A stretch of DNA of 64,000 bases from Fimicolochytrium jonesii (GCF_025526975.1 NW_026515701.1:248001-312000); one strand, 5' to 3'. Shown: positions 37,975 through 64,000, counted from the first letter of the stretch. Notes: generated by a model from the sequence alone, not told the origin. Program-made: numbers and translations.

Positions 37975-38102
37975 CGTTCCTGCGTCAAGGTGGGAGGCTT
38001 TATTTGACGACGTCGCACTTTCTCAGAGCTTTTGCAACGTTGGGTGAATTTGAAGCCGCGCATGCGAAAGAAACCATTCTGTTGACCGCAACCTTCCCAG
38101 TA

Positions 38103-38443
38103 CAGTAACGTCTCGTTTATTTCAATTCCGGTTACTTCAACTTTCGCTTATTTCAACGGTCAGAGGGTTTGGGTTAGGGTTAGGGTTAGGGTTCGGGTAA
38201 CAATGACTTTGACAACACTGAGAGCACGAGGCTTGAGCACTGAAGAGTTCATTGCTCGCCAGATTCTTAGTGAGGAAGGGTTGGAGGTTATGGGGTTAGC
38301 CTAGGGAGTGCCTGTTCACCGAGCTTAGCGTACGTTTTAGTTGCGCACCTGTTTGTATACCCTTAGTATGAGGAGGATTTCAGATATTTCAACTTTCGCT
38401 TATTTCAAGGGTCAATGGTGTTGAAATAAACGAGACGTTACTG
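38103..38443. mobile_element. MITE (Tc1/mariner/pogo type), 341 bp
   Basis: Perfect 23-bp TIRs CAGTAACGTCTCGTTTATTTCAA (38103-38125; 38421-38443), TA on both sides, and 27-bp subterminal direct repeats (38136-38162, 38388-38414). Confidence 0.9.
38165..38200 (+). repeat. Interstitial telomere-like (GGGTTA)n tract inside the MITE
   Basis: GGGTTT GGGTTA GGGTTA GGGTTA GGGTTC GGGTAA. Confidence 0.85.
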
Positions 38444-38516
38444 TAGTAAAGCGTCGAACGCTCGGAATTCGCGTTCCTCAAGTTTGAACATCCCAAACAC
38501 CATCCCAAACAGCAAA

Positions 38517-45573: not shown

Positions 45574-47449
45574 TCATAAGACGATATAATCGGAAAGATG
45601 CCCTCCCCCAGAATGCAGCGGCAAGCTCAGCTCCGCTTTCCGAAGCGCGTCCTCGAACGTCGCAGGTATCCCTTCCGCTTGCCCGTCCCTGATGTTTATG
45701 ACACCGACGTCCACTTCCGCCTCATGCCCCTCAGCCCCATTTGCGCCACTAATATCGAGCGACGGTGCAGCATCCTCCTCTTCTATGTCCTCGCCAACCT
45801 TCCATACAGCGACCGCGTCGATGATCGCCCTCATATTCGCCAGCGTATGTCTCAGATTCACAACAGGAAGATGTAGATGATTCATCAACTGTTCGATATC
45901 CTTGTTCAACAAGAATACAGCGTAGTCGAACCGTATCCGCTCCACACCCTTGGAATACAACGGGAGAATTTTACTGCCGGTATAGTGCTCCGAGACGGTA
46001 TCGGTGACAGTCGAGCGGGATGACATGGATCTCAGGGGGTATCTGAGTGGGACGTCAAGATAGTGGGCTATCATGTTCAGAAGATGGGAGCTGAATCCGA
46101 GGGCGGTAGCTATTTGGTCATCGTCGTGGCCTGCGAAATTTGAATTGGGAAGCCGGAGTCCCCGTATCGTCCAGGCGTCGCCGTCGCTGTCGATGGGTAA
46201 TATGGATGCGGCGCCTGCAATGAGATCTTTGCGTCGTCGGCGGATCTCTGCAGCCATCGATGCGACGGACTCTTCTGTTTCGCCCAATGACATGTGATCC
46301 TGCCTCAGCTCGCTCGTCTGCTCCACCAGCTCTTCCCAGAAGGATGATAGGCCTTCTTCACTCGACAAACGCTTCTTCGGCAGGTCCGACGCATCCTTTC
46401 TAAGCTTCTCCACCTCTTCTGTGTCTACTTTCAGTTTTTCCCTTATCAGATTCAGCCGGTGAGAAAGATGCCGATGCTGTTCCATCCGGTCCCGCCGGCT
46501 GCGATGCTTCGAGCAAATCTCTTCCGCCTTCTCAATAAGACCGGACACGTCCTGCTGCTCATGACATAGCTCCCGCTGCGCTGCCAGCACGGCCATGAGC
46601 GTCTCATAGGAATACGAGTTGCGCGATGCTGCGGAATGCACCGAGACCTTGGTCGGCTCTGAATGATCAGACTCCGACGCAGGCATGTCCCTTGCGGGAA
46701 CATAGAATCGTCCACCAATCTCCAAAAAGATAGCGTTGCGTTCCGACGCTTGTGGCTCATGATCTATGCTCGTCCTTATGCATTTGAGCCGCTGTAGATC
46801 CACCACCACCTCATCGCAACATCCGAAGGGTTTTTCAGAGTGTTTCGCGGCCCAAACTTTGAGCACGAACTGTGATCCGGACCATGGCGTCTGGCGTGAG
46901 CACGCAGAACGATCAACCGACTGCCACTTCGGGTTCCGAGACGCCTCGATGACTTCGCTGATATAAAAGGGTGAATCGTCCGGTTGGGACCGCGCGGTAT
47001 CGACGGGGGAAAGTGTATAGTACGCGTCCAACAAGTCGGTCGATGTCGCTGTTTTGCTTGCTCCGTAGCGTTCGTCGAAGAGGCGTTGCGCACTCATGGA
47101 ACGACTGATGCGTCTGATGGGCTGCTGGAGGCTGGGATGCGAGGACTTTCGCCGTCGCGCCAGGATTTGGGTGATCGCAAGGCTTCCATGAGGTGGTGTA
47201 GGTGATGCGGGCGCTCCATCGGAGCGATTGCTCTTCGACGACCCATCGTTATTATGTGTGACGACTGCCCTTGGCCCAACTTCCAAGGGCTTTTCCAGAT
47301 TCCTTATAAAGATGCAGTCCAAGTGCCGGATCCTTTTCTGCACGGGTCGACATGGGGGGTTTGAGAGTTCAGCAAACCGGGGGGTTGAGACCAGCGATAA
47401 CAGGACCTACCGTTTGACTGTTGCTGTCGATGGCTGACCCGTTATTCAT
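45574..47449 (-). CDS. VPS38: UVRAG/Vps38 (PI3K complex II subunit); short first exon
   Basis: RIRHLDCIFIRNL, C2-like FYISEVIEASRNPKW, coiled coil, TIRGLRLPNS, ATALGFSSHL, LRYPL, RFDYAVFLLNKDIEQL. Confidence 0.88.
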
Positions 47450-49274: not shown

Positions 49275-51593
49275 CTACTTTCCGGCTCTCACCCACTCAG
49301 CAGCCATATCGGCCTTTCTCACAATCTCCCACGTCTTCGCCGCCGCTTTGTACCACTCCCTCTCTGACATCAGATACCAAGCAGGAACGCCAGATGGAGT
49401 AAAAGATGAAGCTCCGGCGCTAGTCAGATGCGCCTTAGACGACGTTGGTGTCTCCGAAGGTGCCGACGTCATCCCTGGTCTTCCGCTGTGGTTCGAATGT
49501 GTCTGGCTTGGTAGAGGTGATGTTGCCACCTGCTCGTGTGGGCCAAGACCCTTCCTCCTGCCCAGCACCGAAGCAGCTGGTGGTGAGGCATGAGGTGTCA
49601 TGTTCATCTGTACAGCAGGCTGATCAACCCCGCCTTCCGGATTCATGGTGCTCGTAGTAGTGTGGGTATTCTGCTGTTGGGTATCTGTATGACTGCCAGC
49701 CCGGGAGAGTTTACTTGTAGGCGTAGGAGCGGGGGTCGAGGGTACGTAGCGAGGCGTCTCGTAAACCTGAGTGAGAAGGATGGACGCCAGGGTATCATAG
49801 CGCGCGGGAATGCCAAAACCAATCAGGCGAGATGCGAGGGATCGCCGTTTTCGAGGACTCATGCTGACATCTGGCGCGGTATTCTCTGAGTCTTGTGAGT
49901 TTTCTGATATTCGAGGAAGTAGGAAAACATTTCCTTGAGAAGTTCCAATGCTATTGATGTTGGCATCCGACGGCGGGTACATCTTGGGAAACGCGTGTCT
50001 CAGTCCGATCGTCGGATGCCCCGACACTCCCGCTCGCGCCCCCTTGAATCTGGCCACAAATGCTTTTTCCGTCAAAGCAAGCGCATGTCTTTCATAGGCT
50101 GGTCCGGTGCAGTTCGTCCTCACAAACACGAGCTGGGGACGTGCTTCGTCCTTGTTGCCACTGGATGATGGAAACAGACGATGCCGCAAAGCCTCAACTC
50201 GGTGAAGAAACGAGAACGTATCTTCGTCGACGAGGTGCCGGAAAGATTGCTGCCGCTTGTGCGTGGTCGCATCCCCTCCATTCGCGAATTCCGTAAGACC
50301 GCTGCGCGATGCACTCTGCAACAACAGAGGCTGAATATTCTCGAGCTCTTCCTCAGCGGTGAGGTTAGCTCCGTCGCTATTCAGTGATGGGCTCACGATG
50401 AGTAATACGTGACAGACTGTAAACATGAACGTGGCAACCCTGATCGACTCCATGGTATCCTGCCTTCCCAACTGCTGTGTTGAAGGGGTATGTCCTACCA
50501 GCGACTGCGAATCCAGAATTACTACACGCTCTGGTGTTATGTGTAGATCGATCCCTGCTGTGGGCAACTGCGACGACGGACTTGCCGTCGGGTTCAAGAA
50601 GTGGGAGACGAGAGTGCTTTTGCCGGAGTCTCTCGGACCAATGACACCGACAATAAAGGAGCCGGGTATCTCGGATAAGGAGCGATGTATGGCCTCTGAG
50701 GTCTGGAACCGAAAATATTGGTCCACAAGCTTATGCGTTCGAGTTGCTGTGATGGGTAGTTGCTGCTGCGCGTACAGTCTTTGCGGCTCGTGAATATGGG
50801 CTGGCTCGTCTGCAAGCTTTGTACCTGTTGGGGTTGAGTGATGTTCGGGTTGCCCTGCTATCGCTTGTGCTGGGGGCCTTCTGAGTAAGAGACCTGTCGG
50901 CATTATGGTGGGCTTCGAGAGTTGTCCGCCACCGCCGCCGGATTGCGGTCTCCTTTCCAGCAATGGACCGTTTTCCGCATTTTTCCTTCCCTTGTCTCTG
51001 CCCCTTCCACGTTGGTCTCCCCTCTCACGGTCACGGTCACGGTCGCGGTCACGCTCACCATCCGGGTCTCTCTGACGGTCGTGTTGCCCTCCACGACGGG
51101 AATGTTGACCTGATCCCGAGCCGGATCTCTCGACCCTGGTGCCGGAACCCCCTTCCGCGCGGCCTGCCAAGCTTCTTTCCACGCGCGGTTGTCTTCCATC
51201 GTTCGCTCTGCTGTCTGCGGTTGCTGCATCATCTCTGTCATCGGGTGCAATCGTCAGGGTCCGCAACTCACTAACTCCGCTACGGTTTGGTGAATGCTCA
51301 TTCGGAGGAGCTTGCTGTCTCCGGCGCGGTGCCCGTCTGTTGGCTGACTTTGGCGATCCGGAGGCAGTGGACGGCGGTCCTTGTCCGCCTTCTGAGAACT
51401 CGTCCCTCCGTGAGTGCCATCCCTGCAAAGGTTCCGATAGCTTTGAAGGCTGAGCCGACAACGAGACTGCCTGAGACGGCGGCTGGGGTGGGTTCAGACC
51501 GTGGGGCGGGTGGGGCGGTTGAGGAGGACGAGGAGGTTGTGGTGGCTGAGGCGGACGATTAGGCTGCGGCGGTCGAGGCGGCGTCGATGACAT
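49275..51593 (-). CDS. SMG9: Nonsense-mediated decay factor SMG9-like P-loop protein, intronless
   Basis: IVGVIGPRDSGKSTLVS, GIDLHITPERVVILDSQ, FMFTVCHVLLIV, and C-terminal MSEREWYKAAAKTWEIVRK. Confidence 0.85.
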   Translation of the reverse strand: MSSTPPRPPQPNRPPQPPQPPRPPQPPHPPHGLNPPQPPSQAVSLSAQPSKLSEPLQGWHSRRDEFSEGGQGPPSTASGSPKSANRRAPRRRQQAPPNEHSPNRSGVSELRTLTIAPDDRDDAATADSRANDGRQPRVERSLAGRAEGGSGTRVERSGSGSGQHSRRGGQHDRQRDPDGERDRDRDRDRERGDQRGRGRDKGRKNAENGPLLERRPQSGGGGGQLSKPTIMPTGLLLRRPPAQAIAGQPEHHSTPTGTKLADEPAHIHEPQRLYAQQQLPITATRTHKLVDQYFRFQTSEAIHRSLSEIPGSFIVGVIGPRDSGKSTLVSHFLNPTASPSSQLPTAGIDLHITPERVVILDSQSLVGHTPSTQQLGRQDTMESIRVATFMFTVCHVLLIVSPSLNSDGANLTAEEELENIQPLLLQSASRSGLTEFANGGDATTHKRQQSFRHLVDEDTFSFLHRVEALRHRLFPSSSGNKDEARPQLVFVRTNCTGPAYERHALALTEKAFVARFKGARAGVSGHPTIGLRHAFPKMYPPSDANINSIGTSQGNVFLLPRISENSQDSENTAPDVSMSPRKRRSLASRLIGFGIPARYDTLASILLTQVYETPRYVPSTPAPTPTSKLSRAGSHTDTQQQNTHTTTSTMNPEGGVDQPAVQMNMTPHASPPAASVLGRRKGLGPHEQVATSPLPSQTHSNHSGRPGMTSAPSETPTSSKAHLTSAGASSFTPSGVPAWYLMSEREWYKAAAKTWEIVRKADMAAEWVRAGK

Positions 51594-53408
51594 GCCCTCT
51601 GCGTTTCGATACTTTCCGGAAATGCCCGTCACTGTCGCTCAAAATGGTGGACGGGCAGGACAGTCCCAAACCCCTCTAAGGAAAGCGCCGCAATAGATAA
51701 TAACAACTACATCACGTGACTCAGTCCTGTTTAGTGGCTGCTGTCGCGTGTTTTACAGTTCCCATCATGTACAGTACTGTATATGTACCGAGGTGCGAGC
51801 AAAGCGCATGAATAGCGGTGAAACTGGCAAATGGTGCCATGTGTTTTCTCCTGGGGACGGTATCCTATTAAAGGGCCAACATGTTTGCTCAGTCCGAGGA
51901 CCCGGCGTGACCGTCTAGGCGATGCCATCCTGAAAACCCGGTAAAATGAAATGGCCCTTCTACTTCGACTGAGCCATATGTGTCTCTGATTTGGTTCCTC
52001 GCATTGGTAAGCTGATAATACGCCAATTCTCAGAGAATTGGGTATGTTGAAAGAGTATGCCATCTCGGTTTTTTTGTCAGATAGACAGCTATTGCTTGCA
52101 GCACGTTCGTGGACCCGCAGCACTGCAAGAGGAGAAAACCTGCACGATCGAGACTATATATGTATATATACCTAATGTGCGAGGTGTGAATGAAGCTGCC
52201 ATGCACTGAGCGCAGACATTGTCGTCCGAGCAATTGACAGAATCAGGACTTGCATTGTGGGACAGGGTGGTGTAAAAGCATTTCAAAATGCCAAAATGTG
52301 CAAGCTGCTGCCCAATTTGGGCAGCAGATCACATGAGCCTGCACTAGTGACGACGCGCGTGTTGGCGAGTCGGACAAGCATCGCACATTTGGCGATATGA
52401 AGTCCGAGCGACCTTCAAACCCTATACATAACTTGGTTCTCAATATTAGCCCAATTCAACCAATGAACCCCAAGTACTTCCAAACAGCAAGGGGTCTTGG
52501 GGGCCCTGCAGTCTCCTTCCATGGGGGTGTTTTCATTCCCGAGATGAGGACAGCAAGCAAGGATAGCTGCAGGTAAACTATATCCGAACCTCGTTCACTT
52601 CACAAGTCATCCCATTTACGATCCCTGTTGCAGACTGTACGATCCCAGCAGTCTGTTAGAAGCCCTCGGAGTTCCGAAGCTTCGGGTCCGATGTGAGAAA
52701 GGGCCCACAATGTTCGTAAAAGCAATGTGCTATGGGGAGACACAGAGCACATTGAAAACCTTATGTTCGGCCGATGGAATCAAGGAGGTCCTTATAGTGC
52801 ATGGGAAAGCTGTTGTTCGCTCCATTTTAGCTCAGGGTCGTGTCAGTACTGCACTTCTTTGCCTTCCGACTTCAATCGGTGAATCAGCTGAAGGTAGAGA
52901 GGACGACCCAGCCGATGACATGGAGAGTGGTTCGGACACCATCGGGAGTGGTTCGGGGAACATTCGGAGTGGTTCAGAGAACATTGGGACAGCTGGACAT
53001 CCTTCTGGAGGTATGCACGAGATCCCATTCAACAAACAAGCAATGGACAAAATGACCAAGTGTTACCAAGCCTGGATTCAAACCCCTCGGCTGAATGAGC
53101 AACCTGTCTCTCGTACTGCAAGTGTTCGCTATACCCATCAATGAGCTGGGAGTCACCGAGAAGAGTGGGATGAGACATGTCGAACGACCCACTCAGGAAC
53201 TTGCGTCGCCCGTGGACAAAGAATGATCACTCCAGTGAGCGAGGTGGCCGGTTCGAATGCCTGCAGGTATGATGATACTGATGTTGTCGTTGAAAGCATC
53301 CCACTAATCTTGGCCTCCATGCAGGGCTCCTGGGGCAACTGCTGTTCACCGGGCTTACGCCAAGCATGGCATCGCCAAACTCATTCATGCGATGGCATGG
53401 ATCGCCTC

Positions 53409-53971
53409 TGTTATGATCTCAACGACGGAGGCGGAAGCGAAGTAGAGAAGACAGGGCGAGAGCGATAGGCGACAAGAGATTGTAATGGCAAAACAAGAAA
53501 CAAGGACTAGAACAGGAGATGAGAAGAACTGGTGTTGATCTGCTGGGGAGGAAGGGAATGGACGAAGAGAGGCCGGCTATTTATAGATGGGCAACCCAGC
53601 AGATCAGAGAACAACAACAACAAGAGGGGACTTGGGGGGCGCCAGCTATGCTCCTAGAGCGTGCGTGGCGAGCGTAGAGAGCATTGCTACAGCTGCTGGC
53701 TATGAGGAAGTAGTGGGGGGTGTGGAGAAGCCGAGGGGGGATTGGCGAAATGAGAGGAGAGAGGAGGAGTGGCGATATTGCAAGAGGATTGGCGAAATGA
53801 GAGGAGAGAGGGGGAGTGGCATTGACATTGACATTGACACTGACATTGACATTGACATTGACACTGACATTGACACTGACATTGACATTGACATTGGCGT
53901 TTGACATTTGGCGGTTGACATTGGCGGCCGTCAGTAGGTAAGCTTATGGTATGGGCTCGTCGTCCATAACA
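53409..53971 (-). repeat. 3' LTR with an (ATTGAC/ACTGAC)n microsatellite
   Basis: Direct repeat of 58936-59495; adjoins the PPT. Confidence 0.95.
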
Positions 53972-53983
53972 TCACCCTTCTCT

Positions 53984-56900
53984 TTAGCGGCCGCGGCGGC
54001 GGCGTCGAGTTTGGTGTGGCCGCAGAGGAGGTGCTACAGGGACAGAGGAAGGCTTGTTGGGGTACGCGCTGTGGAAGTCCTGGAGGAGTGCGTCGGTATG
54101 GGTGAGGTGTTCCACGGGCTCCCAGGTGTTCTCAGAGTCAGGCCAGCCCTGCCCTTTGACCAAGTACTGAAGGCGACGACGATGGATGCGAGAGTCAAGG
54201 ATGACTTTGACAACCCACTCTTCTTGACCCTCAACGGTCTCTGGGGGCGCGGGTTTGGGTTCGTGTCGTTTGGGGATGGTGAAGCGGGGTTCGAGAAGCG
54301 AGACATGGAAGACATCGTGGATTTTGTACGTAGGCGGGAGCTTGAGCCGGTAGGCGACGGGATTGATTTTTTCAACGATGGGGAATGGCCCAATCTTGCG
54401 ATGGTCGAGTTTCTGAGAGGGCCGGGTTGTATGGAGGTTTTTGCGGAGGAGCCAGACGTGGTCGCCATGCTTGAAGTCCGGTCCAGGAATTCGTTTGGCG
54501 TCGGCGTAGCGCTTCATTTGATCTTGGGCTTTCTTGAGCTCGAGGGCGAGCTGTTCATGGACTTCCCTGATTTGTTTAGCGCGGGCTTCCGCGGCGGGGT
54601 TGACGGATTCGGAGGTAGCAGAGGCCGCAAAACTGAAGCGGGGGTGGAGACCCTTGTTGGCGTAGAAGGGGGTGGTCTGGGAGGCAGACTGATGGGTGTT
54701 GTTGTAGGCGAACTCGGCGGACGACAGAAGCTGTTTCCAGTTGTCCTGTTGGTGGTTGCAAAAGCATCGGAGATACTGCTCCAGGATCTGGTTGGTGCGT
54801 TCTGTCTGGCCATCGCTCCGGGGGAGGAAGGCCGAGGAGAGGTTGGCTTTTGCCCCAAGGAGTTCAAGAAGTCGACGCCAGAACCGGGACTTAAACTGGG
54901 GTCCTTGGTCAGAGATGACGTCGTCGGGAGGCCGTGGAGACGGATGATGTTGTAGAAGACTAGGTCGGCGGTGGATTTGGCGGATTCTGACTCGCTGCAG
55001 GCGATGAAGTGGGCCATCTTGGTGAGGCGACAGTTGACGTTCAGGATGGAGTCGTACCCGTCCACGGGAGGCAGACCGGTGATAAAGTCCAGGGACCAAG
55101 ATCCCCAAGGGCGGGTAGGGATACTGTTGGGCTGGAGTAGGCCGTATGGTTTGTGTCGACTGGATTTCGCTTGGCTACAGGTATCGCAGGACTTGACGTA
55201 GGCCTTGACGAAGCGCCACTGGCTGGGCCACCAGTAGTTGCGGGAGGCGAGTTCGAGCGTCTTGGACATCCCAAAGTGGCCGGCTAGGGGAGTATCGTGC
55301 ATGTCGTGGCAGACTTCAGCTCGGAGCTCGTTGGTGGGGACATAGACCAGGTTATCGTGCAGCAGGATCCCATCTTCATCTGAGAACCGCTTGATACGAT
55401 CTTGGGTTTCCTCAGTTCGTTGGGCGAGGGGTATCTTGAGCTTTTCGCGAATGGCCTTAGCGAGGAGATCAGAGGCCTGGGCGGCCTTAATCTTGTCAAG
55501 CAGCGTGGTATCCATGGGTGTGAGGTAGGCAGCCGCGAGTCGAAGGCGTTCGGGAGTCAAAATTGTGGTTGCCTGGGAGCGGAACGCTTCTTCCCCCTTT
55601 TTTTGCTCATGTTCGGAGCGTCGGGAGAGGGCATCGGCTTGGTGCTGCTGGGAACCGGGGCGATAGGTAATGACAAAGTCAAAATCCGAGAAGAATATCG
55701 ACCAGCGGGCTTGGCGGCGGTTCAGGGTGCGGGTGGTCATGAAGTACTGAAGGTTTTTGTGGTCGGAGTAAACGGTGATCTTGTGACGGGCGCCAATGAG
55801 ATGGTGGCGCCACTGGGCAAAGGAGTCTTGGATGGCCAGAAGTTCCTTGTCGTAGATCTCGTAGTTGATCTCTTCGGCCGTGAATTTGCGAGAGTGGAAG
55901 GCCACGGGGTGGAGCTGATTGTCCTGGTCAGGTTGGAGGAGAACTGCGCCAAGAGCGAAGTCGGAGGCGTCAGTTTCGACGACGAAGGGCTTCTCTGGGT
56001 CAGGGTGAGCAAGGATGGGGGCGGTGGTGAATGCTTTCTTCAGGTTCTCGAAGGCGGTGTTTGCGGCGGGTGTCCAGGCGTACGGGATGTCTTTCCGGGT
56101 CAGGGACTGTGAGCGGGGTAGCGATCTTGGAATAACCTTGGATGAATCGGCGATAGAAGTTGGCAAAGCCGAGGAACCGCTGGACGCCTTTGACAGTCTT
56201 GGGAGGTTCCCAATCCGTGATGGCAGCGATCTTCTTGGGGTCCATCTGGATGCCTTTCTCGGAGATGATGGAGCCTCGGAACTCAACGGATTCGCGGTTG
56301 AATTCGCATCTCTCCGGTTTGGCGTACAACCCATGCTGTCGGAGGCGGGACAAGACTTCGCGGACATGTTTGGGGTGATCTTCGGGGTTCTTGGAGAATA
56401 TCAGGATATCGTCGAGGTAGACGACAACAAACACATCGAGAATGTCGCGGAAGATGTCGTTCATCAGGTACTGGAAGACGCCAGGAGCATTGCTGAGTCC
56501 AAAGGGCATGACATTGTATTCAAATAGGCCGTAGCGGCAGCGGAAGGCGGTCTTCCATTCATCGCCCGGGCGCATGCGTAAGAGGTTATAAGCGCCGCGG
56601 AGGTCGATCTTGGTGAGACGGCGGGCGCCGCGCAAACAATCCATGATACCGTTGATCAGGGGCAGGGGGTAGCGATTCTTCACCGTGATGCTGTTCAGGC
56701 CTCGATAATCGACGCAGAGGCGGAGAGAACCGTCCTTTTTTTTCACGAATAAGACTGGTTACCGGCAGGGGACTTTGAGGGTTTGATGAATCCTTTGGCG
56801 AGGTTTTCTTCGAGGTATTCGCAGAGTGCCTTCATTTCTGGTTTGCTGAGGCTGTAGATCGGGCCGAAAGGTGGCTGCTTGCCTTCTTCCAGATCGATTG

Positions 56901-57895
56901 GACAGTCGTAGGGCCGGTGCTCGGGGAGAGTGTCAGCATTTCTCTTTTCGAAAACGTCGGCGAAGTCTCAATACTCAGGGGGCAGGAAGTCTTTGATGTC
57001 TTTCTCGGGTGTCGGGGGTTTACTGGGGCTAGGAGAGGCTGGGAGATCGGGTTTCGCAGGGTTGGCGTAGCCGACAAAGACCTGGTCATGGCTTGCTGCG
57101 ACCCGGGAGGCTGGGGCGGAGATGAACGAGACTCGGAGCGGCGTGGGAGCCGGTCCTGGGGTGCTGAAGCGAGATACCTTGGGTACTGGAATCGACCATG
57201 TTTCGTCGACGGGGACTTCATCCTGGGGGATGCGGATCAAGGGCTCGGGGGTTCTGGCGGGTGCTGGGCTTGGGGGTGCTGGAGAGTTGTCCCAATTCGC
57301 GAATTCATGGTACAGACAGTCGCAACGGAAACCGACCGAAAGGTTCTTGAAGTCAAGGTTAATGTCGTGGAGGCGGAGCCAGGGGAGACCAAGGGGGATT
57401 GGAGCATGGGGTGATTTGGTGACATGGAAGACAAGTTCTTCGAAGTGGTCGTCAACCCACATGCCTACTGGTTGGGTGTGATGGGTGATTGGCCCAGCAG
57501 AACTGGGTTGACCGTCAACGAGTTCGATCTGTCAGGGGACGCTGATGTTGGACTAGGGGGATGCGGTGTTTGCGGGCAAAGTCTCTGTCGATGAAGCAGG
57601 ACAGGGCACCATTGTCGATCATGGCTGAGGTAGGTATTGGGGCGCGGCTGGATGATACCATGATGGTAACGGGGTAGTTGAAGGGTTCGAGGGGACCCAG
57701 CGCAAGCATGGCGTGGGGGTTAATTCCGGAGTTTTCGACAAGGGCAGCGGCTAGGAGGGTTGTGTCGGCTATAACGGAGTTGGGAACCAGGGGGGTGGCC
57801 TCTCCCGTTGCAGGAGCTGTGAGGTTAGGAGGCCCGGGGCGGTGTGTGTTGTCCAGTCGCTGGGGCTTTACTGCGGCTGGACTTTGGGAAAACCC
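53984..57895 (-). pseudogene. pol: pol (protease, RT, RNase H, integrase, chromodomain), disrupted
   Basis: [85 protein letters not shown]. Frameshifts near 57520, 56760, 56110 and 54930; stop at 56968. Confidence 0.93.
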
Positions 57896-58866
57896 TGTTT
57901 GGTGGAGGGTTCTTTGATGTCGACGTTGGCGGCACGGATGGTGGTCTTGTTCTTGACGGGGCAGACTTTTGCAATGTGCCCCGCACCACCGCAGTAAAGG
58001 CAGAGGCTGTTGGAAATGCGGCGTTGGCGTTCCTGAGGGCTCAGAGGGCCGCGGGGACAAGCGGCGTCAATCTGCATAGGCTCGCTGTGGTCGACAGTGG
58101 TGGTAGTAGTAAACGAGGTATGGGGAACCGGGAAGGTCTGGCGGCTTCCGTTTCGCTCCAGGCGGCGCTCAAACAGCCGGTTATCGCACTGGATAGCCTG
58201 CTCCATCACCACATCAATGGTGGCCGCAGGGGGCATTGTGAGCATCAGGTCTTTGACGTCTTCTTTGAGGCCACGGCGGAAGGTAGCGATCAGGGCCTGG
58301 TCGTTCCAGGAGACATCGCATTGTAGCTGGCGGAACTCAGCGACGTACTCGGTTGCTGCACGGGTTTGGCGAAGGTTCTGGAGCTTGTTTTCAGAGGTGC
58401 GGACCGTGTCGCTGTCTCCGAAGACCGATTGCATCTGACTGATAAAACTATCGAAGTCCTGAAGGCTGTGATCTTGGCGTTCGACTAGGGGCGCCATCCA
58501 GGCTTGCGCAGTGCCGGTGAGGTAGGTGCCAATAGTTTGGATCTTGATGATGTCGCTGGGGTAGCGGTCGGGCTGGAGAGCAAACATCAACCGGATGTTG
58601 TTCAACTACCCACGGAATTTGCTGCGGGTACCATCAAACTTCTCGGGCGAGCTGATTCTTGGCTCCAGAGCAGGGTTGGTGGCTTGGGGAAGGGTGTACG
58701 TATCGGCTTGAACCTGGGCGGCGATGCTCTGGGCAGCTTGTGCGTCGGCTTGGGCTTGCGCTAGGTTGGCCTGCAAGTTGGCGTTTTGGCTTTGCAAGGC
58801 GGCGATGGCTTGGCACATATCGTTCCATTGCTTGGCGGTGAAAGGTACGGATTCGGGTTGGGACAT
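57868..58866 (-). pseudogene. gag: gag with CCHC zinc knuckle; in-frame TAG at 58606-58608
   Basis: PEKFDGTRSKFRG*LNNIRL, YLTGTAQAW, LRQTRAATEYVAEF, EPMQID, CLYCGGAGHIAKVC. Confidence 0.93.
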
Positions 58867-58935
58867 GGCGAAAAAGGTTTGTCGGATGCAGGGCTGGACG
58901 GGTTCTGAACTTCGCAGTGTTGGAGCAGATCAAAC

Positions 58936-59495
58936 TGTTATGATCTCGACGACGGAGGCGGAAGCGAAGTAGAGAAGACAGGGCGAGAGTGATAGGCGAC
59001 AAGAGATTGTATTGGCGAAACAAGAAACAAGGACTAGAACAGGAGATGAGAAGAACTGGTGTTGATCTGCTGGGGAGGAAGGGAATGGACGAAGAGAGGC
59101 CGGCTATTTATAGATAGGCAACCAAGCAGATCAGAGAACAACAACAACAAGAGGGGACTGGGGGGGCGCCAGCTATGCTCCTAGAGCGTGCGTGGCGAGC
59201 GTAGAGAGCATTGCTACAGCTGCTGGCTATGGGGAAGTAGTGGGGGGTGTGGAGAAGCCGAGGGGGGATTGGCGAAATGAGAGGAGAGAGGTGGAGTGGC
59301 GATATTGCGGGAGGATTGGCGAAATGAGAGGAGAGAGGGGGAGTGGCATTGACATTGACATTGACACTGACATTGACATTGACATTGGCGTTTGACATTT
59401 GGCGGTTGACATTGGCGGCTGTCAGTAGGTAAGCTTATGGTATGGGCGCGTCGTCTAGTAGGTAAGCTTATGGTATGGGCGCGTCGTCCATAACA
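58936..59495 (-). repeat. 5' LTR with TATAAATA (59112-59105) and a 32-bp tandem duplication
   Basis: Direct repeat of 53409-53971; upstream of gag. Confidence 0.95.
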
Positions 59496-59934
59496 GCCTC
59501 CCCCGATGAATATTATTCCAACCGAGACACGATCAAGGGTCTCACCGATATCGACAAGGCATATCTCTCAAAAGACGATTGCTGGTCTACCCACACCCAC
59601 ATTTAGAATTCGACAGTTGATTGCCACTTCGATGTCGAGGACAAGGGTTTCACAGCTCAGTACACCTTTGGCGACTTCGACGATGGGGGAGATCTTGAAC
59701 TCATCGATGCAGGTTTTGTTCTGAAGCAGGAAGTGGGTACCTTAACCCTGTTCCGAGCCGATCTTCTTCATCATTCAGTGACCGACTACTCGAGGGGGAA
59801 TCGGTATGTGCATTCGATGTATATGCAAAAAAAAGTACGCAACGCTGTACAGAGGAAACCTGGGGATGCCGAGTCGTAGAGTCTGTTTTTGTATGTACTG
59901 TACTTTGTATCAAATATATTCGAGTCTTTTTGAA

Positions 59935-62900
59935 TTATTTTGGTGAACTGCTATCTACGCCTACTTCTACGTGTGCATGTTTACGTGGGGTCGTTGTCGG
60001 TGTAGAGCTTGGTGTTGCCAAGTGTACAGTGGTTGCGATACTTGCTGTACGCTCAACAACATCGTGATCAACCCGGTGAAAGGAGCGAATGGCAAGGTAT
60101 GGTGTTGCGGTTGTGTCGGCACGAGCCCTTTTCCCCGCGAGTGTTGTGACTTTACTGGCTTGAGTACGTGTCTGGCCGGTTGACCACTCGCTCAAGTTGG
60201 TGATGTCTTTGCAGTAGCTCTTTTGTTCGTAAGAGTGGCCGTGTGCGACGGGTCGGGAGTATCCAAGCTGGCCAGGTACGCTCATCTTGTGCTGGAAGCG
60301 GTGCCAAGGATCAGCCATTTTGCATCTGCCACCAAAAATTGTGACATGTACCTTGTGGACGATGAGAAGCTTCTTCAGCGCAAGGAAAGCATCGGTTGGG
60401 GAGGCTTTGTTGACTTGATCACGTCCACCTATGCAAACTCCAGAGTGTAAGTGGCACAATATCATGCCGACAAATAAAGCTGCATATCTTTTCCGAGGAT
60501 TTGTTTGAATGCTGAAAAGTGATTCTCCACATCATTGGATTGTTGCCAGCGATCGTTGAAGAGTGGGGTGTATTTCTCGGGATCGGGAGAGGTTTTGGCA
60601 TATGTTTTGTTGCAAGGAACACTTTCCAAGAAGCGAATCATTGCTTTTCGCCCAAAACACAGGATTAGTGTCGCCTCCAACAGTTCAATCGGGAGAGCAG
60701 TCTCTTCATTGTGCAGAAGCGCCGAGGGGCAGGTGAGCCTCGAGTGGCGGTATGCATAAGGGGTCTGAAGAAGATGCGATCAGCAGGGTTCACCATACAT
60801 GAAAGGTAACACCTTGTCGGCCAGCCAATCAATCATACGGTCAACCCTTGCTTCTCGATCGTCCTGCAAAATACCAGACAGATCAAGTGCTTCAAAGAAT
60901 TCTCGAAGAACATTGCAAAACTCAGCTTCCGTCGCATATCCTGTTGTTTCCAGAATATCTGCGACCTGCTTGCAAAACCCGGTCTTTGCATCAGGGACAC
61001 ACTGATCGTCACGCTTATACCACCAAGTTCCAAACACCTCGTTGTGTTCAGGCATTCCCGCAATGCTCAGCCAGGCTTCTTTCCTCAAGTGGGCTCCGCA
61101 CCTGGATGTTGTAACATGTTTGATAAATTGCTTCATGACGTGATCCAGGTCGATGGAAATGATCAAAGGAAGGTCTCGGTTACAAGGGTTCCTTTCAGGC
61201 ACATAAAGGGAAGAAAAGAAATCGTTGCCAGCCCTCCTCCTCTCGGCCAATCGCCTTTCCACCCGGATATGTGTGAGCCATTCTCGTAATGGCGACATGG
61301 ATGTGCGATTTGTGTTCGCTGCCACAATAAGCGCCGAGATCGTGAGAGTTCGTGCAAGGTTAACAGGATGTCCCCGCTGGCCTGGCAAAAATGCTGACAT
61401 GTTGAACTGTCATTCCTGTTGTGTCAGTGCCCAGATCTCAACAATCTCCAGAAGGTTTCGCAACTCAGGGATGCCGACCAAGTCTATGCGTCCAAAAACA
61501 TGTAGAGTTTCAAGTAGCGTTGCAAAGAATGGGGCACCCTCACTGCGATAGTTTCTCAGCAGTGTTTCCAAACCCGCAGGTAGATGTGGAACAAATCGTG
61601 TGCCGATTCCGTAGGGCATGCCATCCCACTGTTGAGCACGGGATTGCAGAATATATTCATGGGCCTCTTCCTTCAGACACTCCACGATCTCGGCTTTCTT
61701 CCTGCCCTCTTTCACAACCGCATCCAGCTCGGCGCGCCAAATCTAAACACGACACGATGAGTTACTGTTCATTATTGGAGTTGCAGGAAGCAAACCTACC
61801 GCATTAATAAATTTCGGCTGGTCAAGCCCCCGTGTTGCAAGAGAATGACTTGCCCCATCGCACAACACAGAGATAACAGGAATTGAGCGCTTCTGGAATT
61901 CCTCGAGCAGAACTCGAAGAATTGCGGTATTCTGCTGATGGTTTGGTGCTTCCACAAAGCAGGCAAAGACAATCTGTGATTTCAAACGCTGGGAGTTGGC
62001 GAAGGTCCAAAGCTGTAATTTCTTTGCCCTTGGCAAAAGATGCAGCCGTGCAGCAAGGAAGTACTCTAGCGCATTCCGACATAGGCTGACTAATTCGTCT
62101 TTGTGTTGCAGTAACAGCCATGTCGACGGCAGAAGGTCGAGGGGGTTGTCGGTAACGTCGGGGGGTTGCGCCAGCTTCAACTGCCAATTTGCGCATTCGG
62201 TAAGAATTTTTTCCACGGCGGTGCGAAGATTGTTTGTTTTCACCGCATCACTTTCGTAGGCTCCTAACGCAGCTGCCGGGCGCTGACTGGAAGGTGCAGT
62301 GAGCACTGTCCCTGCTTCAAAAGCAATCGCACCAGTCTCAATCTCGCGTCGTTTCGTGGTTACTTGTTTCTCCGCTCCAACTGCATACACAGTCAGCTGC
62401 GCTAGGAGGGCTACAAGATTGCTTTCACATTCCGTCAGCCAGTGGGTAAATTGAACCGTCAAACGTGGGTCGCCCCATGTGTATTCAACATCTTGTGCGT
62501 CGTTCATTTGTGCCATGCACAACTGTGTGCTCAACTCGAATGCGTTGAGGGCTTGTTCAACCTGCGGTGCAGAAATCAGGGTGCGCCGACATGAGTTGAA
62601 ATGTGCACAGAGACAATACCGTTGCCACATCCTACAGTCCCAGAATGCTCTCAGTCAGTCCGGGGCCAAGGTCGACAGTTCCCGTCAGCCGTCCTTTGCT
62701 TCCACGTTGAACAGTCGAGATTCCGTAATCGGTTTCATCAACCCCAATGCCGCCGGCCAGGTAGCGCAATCCGAGACTTTCCTGCAGCCGAGCGTGTTGT
62801 GCACAAATCACGTCTATGCGGTCCGAATCCAATCCAACAAGCTGCACACCCACATCTGCTCGAAGCTTCTGCTGAGCACGCTGTGATGGGAGAACCAGGT

Positions 62901-63883
62901 TTCCGTCTTATTCGCATGGCTTCCGCGGCCCACTGCGCCCAACTCCTGCCCATCCTTTGCCGACAAGAAACTTGTAAGCCCGACCGCCAAAGCGGGTCTC
63001 AAATTCAAACCAGAACTCAGCAACACGAGAAGAGAAGATGCTGCATCTCCGCCCACGGTAGTCCTTCACCGTAAAGAACTGTAACTGTATCGGATAGCGT
63101 GGTAGGTGTCAGTGATGGCAATTGTGACAATGGCAAGATTGGTAGGCAAAATAAAAGGGGCAAATGGGCGAGCACGACGCACACATACCTGACTCGCGAT
63201 GAATTCCCAGAGCCAGTGAGTGGGCCTCAGGCATCCTGAAACTACAGCCCGCATCGCCATCAGAGCAATGTCAATCACCTCCATATCCTCGAGGTCGGTG
63301 AGCTTGTGGTACTCAGTGTAGAGCTTTGCTGCTCGATACACATGTTTGTTCTCCTTTTCAAAGATGAAGGCACCTTTCTTGTCGTTGGCCAGGACTCGCT
63401 TGGTAGGCAGTGCTCCTTTTGCCAGCAACTGATCGTGGGTGAGACTCCCATTCCGACCTCAGAAACCCATGAGGCCAGTCTGCAGAAGATCTCCTTGCAT
63501 GGCTCTGTTCTTGTCGACCAGGCATTCAACTCTCTGCTTTGTCTCCTCATGTTCCTCCTGCAGTTTGGTGTAGGTCGTTTGCAGTTTGGTAAAGTCGTTT
63601 CCGAGTTTGGTATGTTCGGATTGGAGTTTGGTGGCCAAGGAAGCCTGCAACAAGATCCCATTCAGTTTCCAGGTGTCCTTGGACTCATTGCATTAGGCAT
63701 ATACAGTGCCAGAATGGTGAACATATTGTCGCTGTCGATACCATAGATGATTGAGTCGGTGGTGAGAAGTTGAGTCGGGGGCTTCAAGTTCGCATCAGGG
63801 GGAGTTCGATGGTAGCAGCCTCGGACACGATTCTGAATCTGAGCAACGATGAATACTGTCTGTTTGTTGTCAAGCCACTCATG
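59935..63883 (-). pseudogene. Large decayed P-element/THAP9-like DDE transposase
   Basis: Ordered motifs: NLVLPS, GVDETD (D1, ~62735), GTVDLG, VISVLCDGASH (D2, ~61858), IDLDHVMK (DxxH, ~61145), DDQCVPDAK..F..QVA, EAEFC..L..FFEALD, QSNDVENHFS (E, ~60525). Many stops and frameshifts; 5' end cut by an LTR. Confidence 0.72.
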
Positions 63884-64000
63884 TGTTATGGACGACGCGC
63901 CCATACCATAAGCTTACCTACTGACAGCCGCCAATGTCAACCGCCAAATGTCAAATGCCAATGTCAATGTCAATGTCAGTGTCAATGTCAGTGTCAATGT
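63884..64000 (+). mobile_element. Start of another LTR of the same Gypsy family, opposite orientation (truncated by window)
   Basis: TGTTATGGACGACGCGCCCATACC...(GTCAAT)n is the reverse complement of the LTR end. No PPT precedes it, so it is a 5' or solo LTR. Confidence 0.93.

Follow-up and report, generated by a model that had tools for sequence, protein, structure and literature searches.

A TET/JBP-type dioxygenase pseudogene convergent with a P-like transposase pseudogene in Fimicolochytrium jonesii: likely remains of a DNA transposon with TET cargo

We analyzed a stretch of 64,000 nucleotides from Fimicolochytrium jonesii (GCF_025526975.1, NW_026515701.1:248001-312000), hereafter called the window, in which a TET-like gene broken by an LTR retrotransposon lies beside a transposase-like gene. 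Coordinates are counted from the first letter of the window, and the proteins used for comparison are designated by P and a number. Two host genes are found to the left, both on the minus strand. The gene at 49275-51638 encodes a P-loop protein with weak Pfam matches to GTPases and ATPases, which we take to be SMG9-like, and the one at 45574-47406 encodes a coiled-coil protein that is presumably UVRAG/Vps38-like. The window also contains a MITE-like element of 345 bp (38101-38445), whose inverted ends, 25 nt long and perfect, each include a TA and enclose a repeat of 47 nt and a short run of GGGTTA; by its look, we assume it to be related to Tc1/mariner.

The 3' part of the TET-like gene is on the plus strand. 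Part of a middle exon occupies 53046-53266, immediately after the left breakpoint of an inversion described below, and matches P0010 (residues 528-674) and P0028 (176-307) together with the later exons. It is followed by a GT..AG intron of 58 nt (53267-53324), whose acceptor region is shared by P0003 and whose retention lowers the alignment scores to all nine homologues (9/9), and by an exon that ends at the LTR insertion (53325-53408) and is matched by homologues. The catalytic exon lies at 59501-59879, with its natural stop at 59877-59879. As the original prediction had it, the frame is kept when 53408 is joined to 59501, and the motifs are where they had been placed: HFD at 59625-59633, followed by an Asp five residues after its His (H+5, 59640), FGDFDDGGDL, the HH pair at 59769-59774 with the distal His at 59772, and RYVHSMY at 59802-59822, starting with the Arg at 59802. 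The motifs hold, but two spacings are longer by one residue than predicted (N-x5-H and F-x5-HH, not x4). Likewise, both proposed introns are canonical (GT..AG, 61 and 58 nt), but the first one (52573-52633) belongs to the transposase-like gene. The expectation of an open frame once the retrotransposon is excised failed: the predicted reading of 402 codons is stopped at codon 207 (TGA, 53142-53144, in the middle exon) and at codon 311 (TAG, 59604-59606, in the catalytic exon). The latter lies seven codons ahead of HxD, at a place where P0003 has Trp. With the correct 5' piece, the TET frame comprises 293 codons and the two premature stops are unchanged.

The element separating the two exons is a Ty3/Gypsy LTR retrotransposon with a chromodomain integrase (53409-59495, minus strand, 6087 bp), and its predicted insertion in the TET-like gene is borne out by direct reading. 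Its LTRs (53409-53971, 563 bp; 58936-59495, 560 bp) have TGT..ACA ends, and a 5-bp target-site duplication, GCCTC, flanks it on the left (53404-53408) and on the right (59496-59500). Pfam matches comprise Retrotrans_gag, RVT_1, RT_RNaseH, Integrase_H2C2, SH3_Tf2-1 and Chromo; the LTR pair, the target-site duplication, the gag-RT-RNase H-integrase order and the chromodomain are those of the chromovirus type of Ty3/Gypsy elements. The coding strand is the minus strand, with pol scattered over several broken frames, and the LTRs differ by 11 substitutions in 452 bases. One LTR ends with a 33-nt tandem duplication (59424-59495), and the number of GACATT repeats differs between the two. A second LTR of the same family, in the opposite orientation (63884-64000, plus strand, 97-98% inverted match to both LTRs), leaves the window and interrupts the 5' piece of the TET gene, the remainder of which lies past the window end. 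When the original order of the gene is restored, this LTR and the first insertion are about 575 bp apart. Chromodomains direct the targeting of retrotransposons, and two insertions of chromodomain retrotransposons in one gene are consistent with a silenced region.

The neighbouring gene is a pseudogene of a P-element/THAP9-like transposase, whose body spans 60462-63644 on the minus strand. Two relatives of it, P0006 (100% identical) and P0007 (96%), were found among 7995 scored candidates, in a search that covered gene models of 532-2000 aa. P transposases share the motif order D..DG..DH..E, and we found VDETD at 62742, GTVDLG at 62682, VLCDGAS at 61868, IDLDHVMK at 61154 and NDVENHFS at 60536. 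In the Atlas, residues 300-720 of P0006 gave a first match of 0.92 with 174 shared features, to TNP-like families and P-element/THAP9 clusters, and structural comparison gave a TM of about 0.5 to THAP9/P clusters, in rows below the naming bar of the Atlas. A PDB sequence search with the protein returned no match. The gene thus resembles P-element/THAP9 transposases (Pfam TNP-like_RNaseH_N, TNP-like_GBD) in its feature and structure neighbours and in its motif order, and differs from them by scores below the curated cut-offs (E of 0.068-0.11 for TNP-like_RNaseH_N), by the lack of a THAP zinc finger in P0006 and P0007 at E <= 10 in Pfam, and by termini that were not seen. It probably belongs to the P superfamily. 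P elements are described as rare in fungi, with 11 copies having a transposase (PMC5751038). Compared with P0007, the copy in the window carries a premature TGA in place of Arg230 and shifts frame near 63640. The two genes are convergent, and the end of the last transposase frame, 60462, is around 580 bp from the TET stop. P0007 is an un-inverted, 96% identical copy and the next gene model after P0006, so that a second element probably lies near the right end of the window.

Both genes are joined to the wrong 5' end. The 5' exons of the transposase-like gene are on the plus strand (52463-52572 and 52634-53010, separated by its first intron) and correspond to residues 1-163 of P0007, while the 5' part of the TET-like gene is a piece of 66 codons on the minus strand (63883-63686) matching P0003 (109-168, 78%), P0028 (104-168), P0004 (198-217) and P0010 (460-519). 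The ATG at 52463 is therefore not the start of the TET gene, as had been proposed, since, of 44 proteins compared, P0007 alone matches 52463-53010, at 96% over 164 aa. P0007 is one protein that reads 52463-53012 on the plus strand and then 63632-61413 on the minus strand. Conversely, P0003, P0028 and P0010 are one protein each and read 63883-63686 on the minus strand and then 53046 onward on the plus strand; the residues of P0003 after 109-168 match the plus strand from 53068 onward. These proteins read across both strands, and the 5' ends were thus exchanged between the two convergent genes by an inversion that spans around 10.6 kb (roughly 53046-63685). It broke the transposase-like gene within its second intron (donor GT 53011-53012, acceptor AG now at 63646-63645) and the TET gene within an exon. 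At the GCAATG junctions (53040-53045, and 63691-63686 on the minus strand) the homologues carry five extra residues, hence the breaks can be placed only within 53031-53045 and 63677-63691. The TET-like gene is a pseudogene with five lesions, namely two nonsense codons, two LTR insertions and one inversion, and this copy is incapable of giving an active enzyme.

We then assessed the family of the encoded protein. The closest longer relative of the catalytic exon is P0003 of the same species (85% identical), the sole one among 116 candidates. In the public gene model of P0003, part of the middle exon is in the wrong frame and the model ends before the distal His, so that the annotation conceals the family. 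The profile search supports the predicted family in part: Tet_JBP is the sole Pfam family matched by the window's catalytic domain, but at 15.3-15.5 bits, under the cut-off of 34.9 (P0005 reaches 21.8 bits). Unaided PDB sequence searches placed PiuC-type hydroxylases first, at non-significant E values (0.065 for PiuC). A three-sequence profile searched against 1.84 billion representatives gave 40 matches at E <= 0.001. Of the 38 that were new, 24 match Tet_JBP at E <= 0.01 (5 over the cut-off), 13 are close relatives without a Pfam family and one is an unrelated Ig-repeat protein. A profile of 35 relatives ranked CcTet (9e-12) and NgTet1 (2e-9) ahead of PiuC (3e-4). In the Atlas, residues 215-326 of P0003 led to fungal clusters in which 13-19% of the members carry Tet_JBP.

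Structure predictions, for which the input alignments consisted of TET-like relatives, agree with these profiles. The 125-residue catalytic half, modeled on a 35-sequence alignment, gave a double-stranded beta-helix (pLDDT 94, pTM 0.82), and all 17 Foldseek matches at E <= 0.001 were chains of CcTet, NgTet1 or CMD1. The TM was 0.70-0.75 to CcTet and NgTet1, against a TMq of at most 0.54 for other oxygenases. The model of P0008, the closest full-length relative (37% identical over the core), retrieved CcTet (8e-15), NgTet1 (2e-11), CMD1 (3e-11) and TET2 (4e-8 to 4e-7) before FTO, ALKBH5 and PiuC, which ranked at 1.6e-5 or weaker. Hence, the comparison with the Naegleria and Coprinopsis TETs proposed at the outset returned these two enzymes as top fold matches, and folds and profiles alike put TETs above AlkB and prolyl hydroxylases, in agreement with the predicted TET/JBP-type 2OG-Fe(II) dioxygenase. 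These models argue strongly for a TET/JBP fold with an Fe(II)/2OG site made of His-Asp-His plus Arg.

The best structural and profile match is CcTet of Coprinopsis cinerea (PDB 7VPN, 7W5P, 8JKK; AG type), which shares the HxD..H..R core and the extended N-terminal strands and helices ahead of the beta-helix; the latter are present in the TET-like gene when the minus-strand piece is included, and the alignment of the P0008 model with CcTet extends over around 350 columns. Identity to CcTet is just 15-18%, and the last strand reads RYVHSMYMQ in the window versus RYCMAHFWR. The second-best fold match is NgTet1 of Naegleria (PDB 4LT5, 5CG8). It resembles the window's protein by an Asp at H+5 (D234) and an aromatic residue at R+6 (F295, Tyr in the window), where R is the Arg of the last strand, and differs from it in that the window has Gln for H297, Ser for V293, and Ser rather than Arg at H-5, a position equated with the stacking Arg (R224) of NgTet1 through the CcTet alignment.

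To place the gene among its relatives, we aligned 35 of 46 proteins and built an unrooted tree from 34 cores, P0010 being omitted as truncated. Seventeen sequences, pre-grouped by score and motif, are set apart from the rest by a branch (support 96/91). The named members of this clade are all Powellomycetaceae (7/7) and the remaining ones are environmental records. Five of the seven are models of F. jonesii, each from a contig of its own other than that of the window, and two are adjacent models of Geranomyces variabilis. The five other F. jonesii models all look damaged: four end early, and P0037 has HVN in place of HxD. Intact members of the clade are P0008, P0009, P0046, P0012, P0014, P0016 and P0022. 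An N-terminal Cys/His-rich segment in P0014, P0016, P0022 and P0042 looks like a PHD finger by eye, and has no Pfam match at E <= 0.01.

What could bring a TET gene next to a transposase? We consider it likely that this dead TET/JBP gene facing a dead P-like transposase is what remains of a cut-and-paste DNA transposon with a TET cargo, whose enzyme is predicted to oxidise 5-methylcytosine and so to ease the silencing of the element. Both genes are multi-copy in F. jonesii (five more TET-clade models, one more transposase model) and probably moved as one element. Transposons of the P superfamily have terminal inverted repeats and a target duplication of 7-8 bp. Neither a terminal inverted repeat nor a DNA-transposon target duplication was found in the window, beyond which the right end lies, and 51640-52470 has no 12-nt inverted partner within the element. 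As the termini were not found, the cargo status is one that we infer. A perfect hairpin with 11-bp arms at 52305-52327, some 140 bp ahead of the ATG of the transposase-like gene, is possibly a subterminal repeat of the element.

The two genes bear a trace suggestive of methylation. Their CpG observed/expected ratio (5.5 kb) is 0.80, against 0.87-1.10 in 187 overlapping host segments of the same size. There are 20 residue differences to P0007, of which 19 are single-step, and 8 of these 19 are CpG transitions versus 7% expected (P 2e-5, or 0.003 counting transitions only), the changes being deduced from protein rather than DNA and one of the eight having a transversion reading as well. P0003 and P0004 end exactly at a CGA codon of the window, CGA making up 6 of the 293 codons. 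The element was thus probably CpG-methylated. Spizellomyces, of the same order, is described as having 5mC on transposons alone and 6mA as a mark of expressed genes (PMC12695648), and F. jonesii as having over 1% 6mA (PMC11258239). A transposon in such a host would benefit from the removal of 5mC, not of 6mA. We propose that a P-like cut-and-paste element bore its transposase gene and, tail to tail with it, a TET gene, whose enzyme would have oxidised 5mC on the DNA of the element and eased its silencing. Copies of the element would have spread, become methylated and decayed, and this copy would have gained nonsense changes, two LTR insertions and the internal inversion, in one order or another.

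A different reading accepts the TET pseudogene and denies that it is cargo: two mobile or dying genes with no relation to each other would have ended up as neighbours where the DNA is rich in repeats and methylated, close to the end of a contig, and some other carrier would have spread the clade. The termini missing from the window leave room for it, as does the occurrence of the pair at this locus alone, none of the related loci retrieved carrying both genes; at the environmental locus L001 (1.5 kb), no transposase-like frame was found in the 1 kb behind the TET gene. By accession order, P0006 and P0007 come close to the end of the models on their contig and P0003 near the beginning on a different one, as would be expected of repeat-rich regions. 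F. jonesii also has two transposase models versus five other TET-clade models, the transposase count applying to models of 532-2000 aa. On the other hand, the two genes are arranged tightly tail to tail with no gene between them, their CpG loss is common to both and absent from host DNA, and fungal TET genes have been placed inside DNA transposons in 11 lineages (PMC12730594). We regard this reading as unlikely.

The substrate is a separate question, on which the last strand of the fold is informative. In the clade it follows R-x-V-H-S/T-x-H/Y-x-Q: among the 15 sequences in which this strand is present, 12 have His at R+3, 11 have Ser/Thr at R+4, 8 have His at R+6 and 8 have Gln at R+8, where none has His (0/15). 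The other relatives (n=17) have Val/Ile at R+4 in 15 cases and His at R+8 in 11. In addition, Arg occupies H-5 in 1 of 18 sequences of the clade, and H+5 is Asp or Asn in 15 of 17. According to PMC4678852, V293, F295 and H297 of NgTet1 shape the base pocket, and His297 binds the base together with Arg224. Positions R+2, +3, +4, +6 and +8 are thus changed jointly across the clade, and these places line the base pocket in NgTet1. The original prediction had read altered specificity from RYV in place of RxS. RYV is present, but as a lone argument it is weak because the solved NgTet1 (RIG) and CcTet (RYC) also do without RxS. Two His outside the iron triad are typical of the clade, at 59592 (H-11, 13/18) and 59811 (R+3, 12/15), and there is a further His in an upstream HxG motif; these might form a second metal site or a structural site.

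The earlier hint at 6mA is not favoured. The 6mA activity of CcTet is reported to depend on Gly331 and Asp337, and the H+5 residue of conventional TETs to contact N4 of 5mC and to block 6mA (PMC11040006). The window has Asp at the place of Gly331 (H+5) and Thr at that of Asp337 (G+2), which is the conventional 5mC pattern by the account in PMC11040006. The combination of these two residues makes 5mC the likelier substrate, and the window's enzyme would be expected to act on 5mC rather than on 6mA or thymine. As the clade is without the His at R+8 and nearly without the Arg at H-5, both base-binding in NgTet1, we are more certain of the family than of the substrate.

The clade could then be TET-like in fold but act on a different base, thymine or 6mA, or end at a different product by stalling at 5hmC, its base-binding strand having been rebuilt. 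This would concern the substrate alone and is compatible with the cargo reading. The changes at R+3, R+4, R+6 and R+8 relative to the other relatives, at places that shape the NgTet1 pocket (PMC4678852), would fit such a change, and so would a host with over 1% 6mA (PMC11258239). Yet the Asp or Asn kept at H+5 in 15 of 17 sequences is of the kind said to bind N4 of 5mC and block 6mA, and CcTet is described as retaining 5mC activity with Arg at the position of His297 (PMC11040006), while the CpG decay indicates 5mC as the mark to counter. We find another substrate unlikely. It is quite unlikely, though directly testable on the intact members of the clade, that Powellomycetaceae hold a fourth type of transposon-borne TET, carried by P-superfamily transposons, with a rebuilt strand giving a substrate or product unlike those of known TETs, in a host with 5mC on transposons and abundant 6mA.

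Regarding the inversion itself, an assembly error, with both genes in order on the true chromosome, is very unlikely. Repeats abound in the region and P0007 is 96% identical to the transposase-like gene, but the two junctions match each other reciprocally to within about 15 nt, both fall in unique sequence outside the LTRs, and the gene would be dead regardless through its stops and insertions. There is next to no chance that a single, otherwise intact gene runs from the ATG at 52463, silenced by the retrotransposon alone and restored by excision or splicing: in its favour are the in-frame join of the empty site and the two canonical introns, but two premature stops remain, the 5' exons are those of the transposase-like gene, and adding the 52463 exons to the TET 3' part raises the scores to 9 homologues by just 0-8 points. 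With the minus-strand piece, by contrast, the scores to the two closest homologues rise by 154 and 64 points. The picture of a gene that is hidden but repairable, with its start at 52463, is thus rejected. The locus is a clear example of a gene predictor and a sequence reader both attaching the wrong 5' end after an inversion.

Transposons carrying TET genes are not new in principle. DNA transposons with TET genes were reportedly described in fungi by Iyer et al. in 2014. More recently, Kojima (2025) showed that, in three groups of Dikarya, TET genes map within transposons of 11 lineages; the main text of that paper mentions neither chytrids nor P elements (PMC12730594), and we found no pairing of a P element with TET in fungi or chytrids in the literature searched. 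As in the fungal elements described there, a TET/JBP gene adjoins a DDE transposase, an arrangement for which escape from methylation silencing has been proposed; unlike them, with their mapped termini and mostly intact genes (PMC12730594), the present locus has no termini found and both genes are dead. The P-like carrier, the chytrid phylum and the enzyme subtype appear to be new, and the link between cargo and carrier is a probable one. Since the copy is dead, the locus matters as a marker of its family, and it brings to light a TET clade with a changed pocket that is mostly missed by Pfam. If the TET gene was indeed cargo, the P-like element would be a twelfth carrier lineage and would add an early-diverging phylum to the hosts of TET-carrying transposons. 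This would suggest that transposons across the fungi, and not those of Dikarya alone, generally counter 5mC silencing by acquiring a demethylase.
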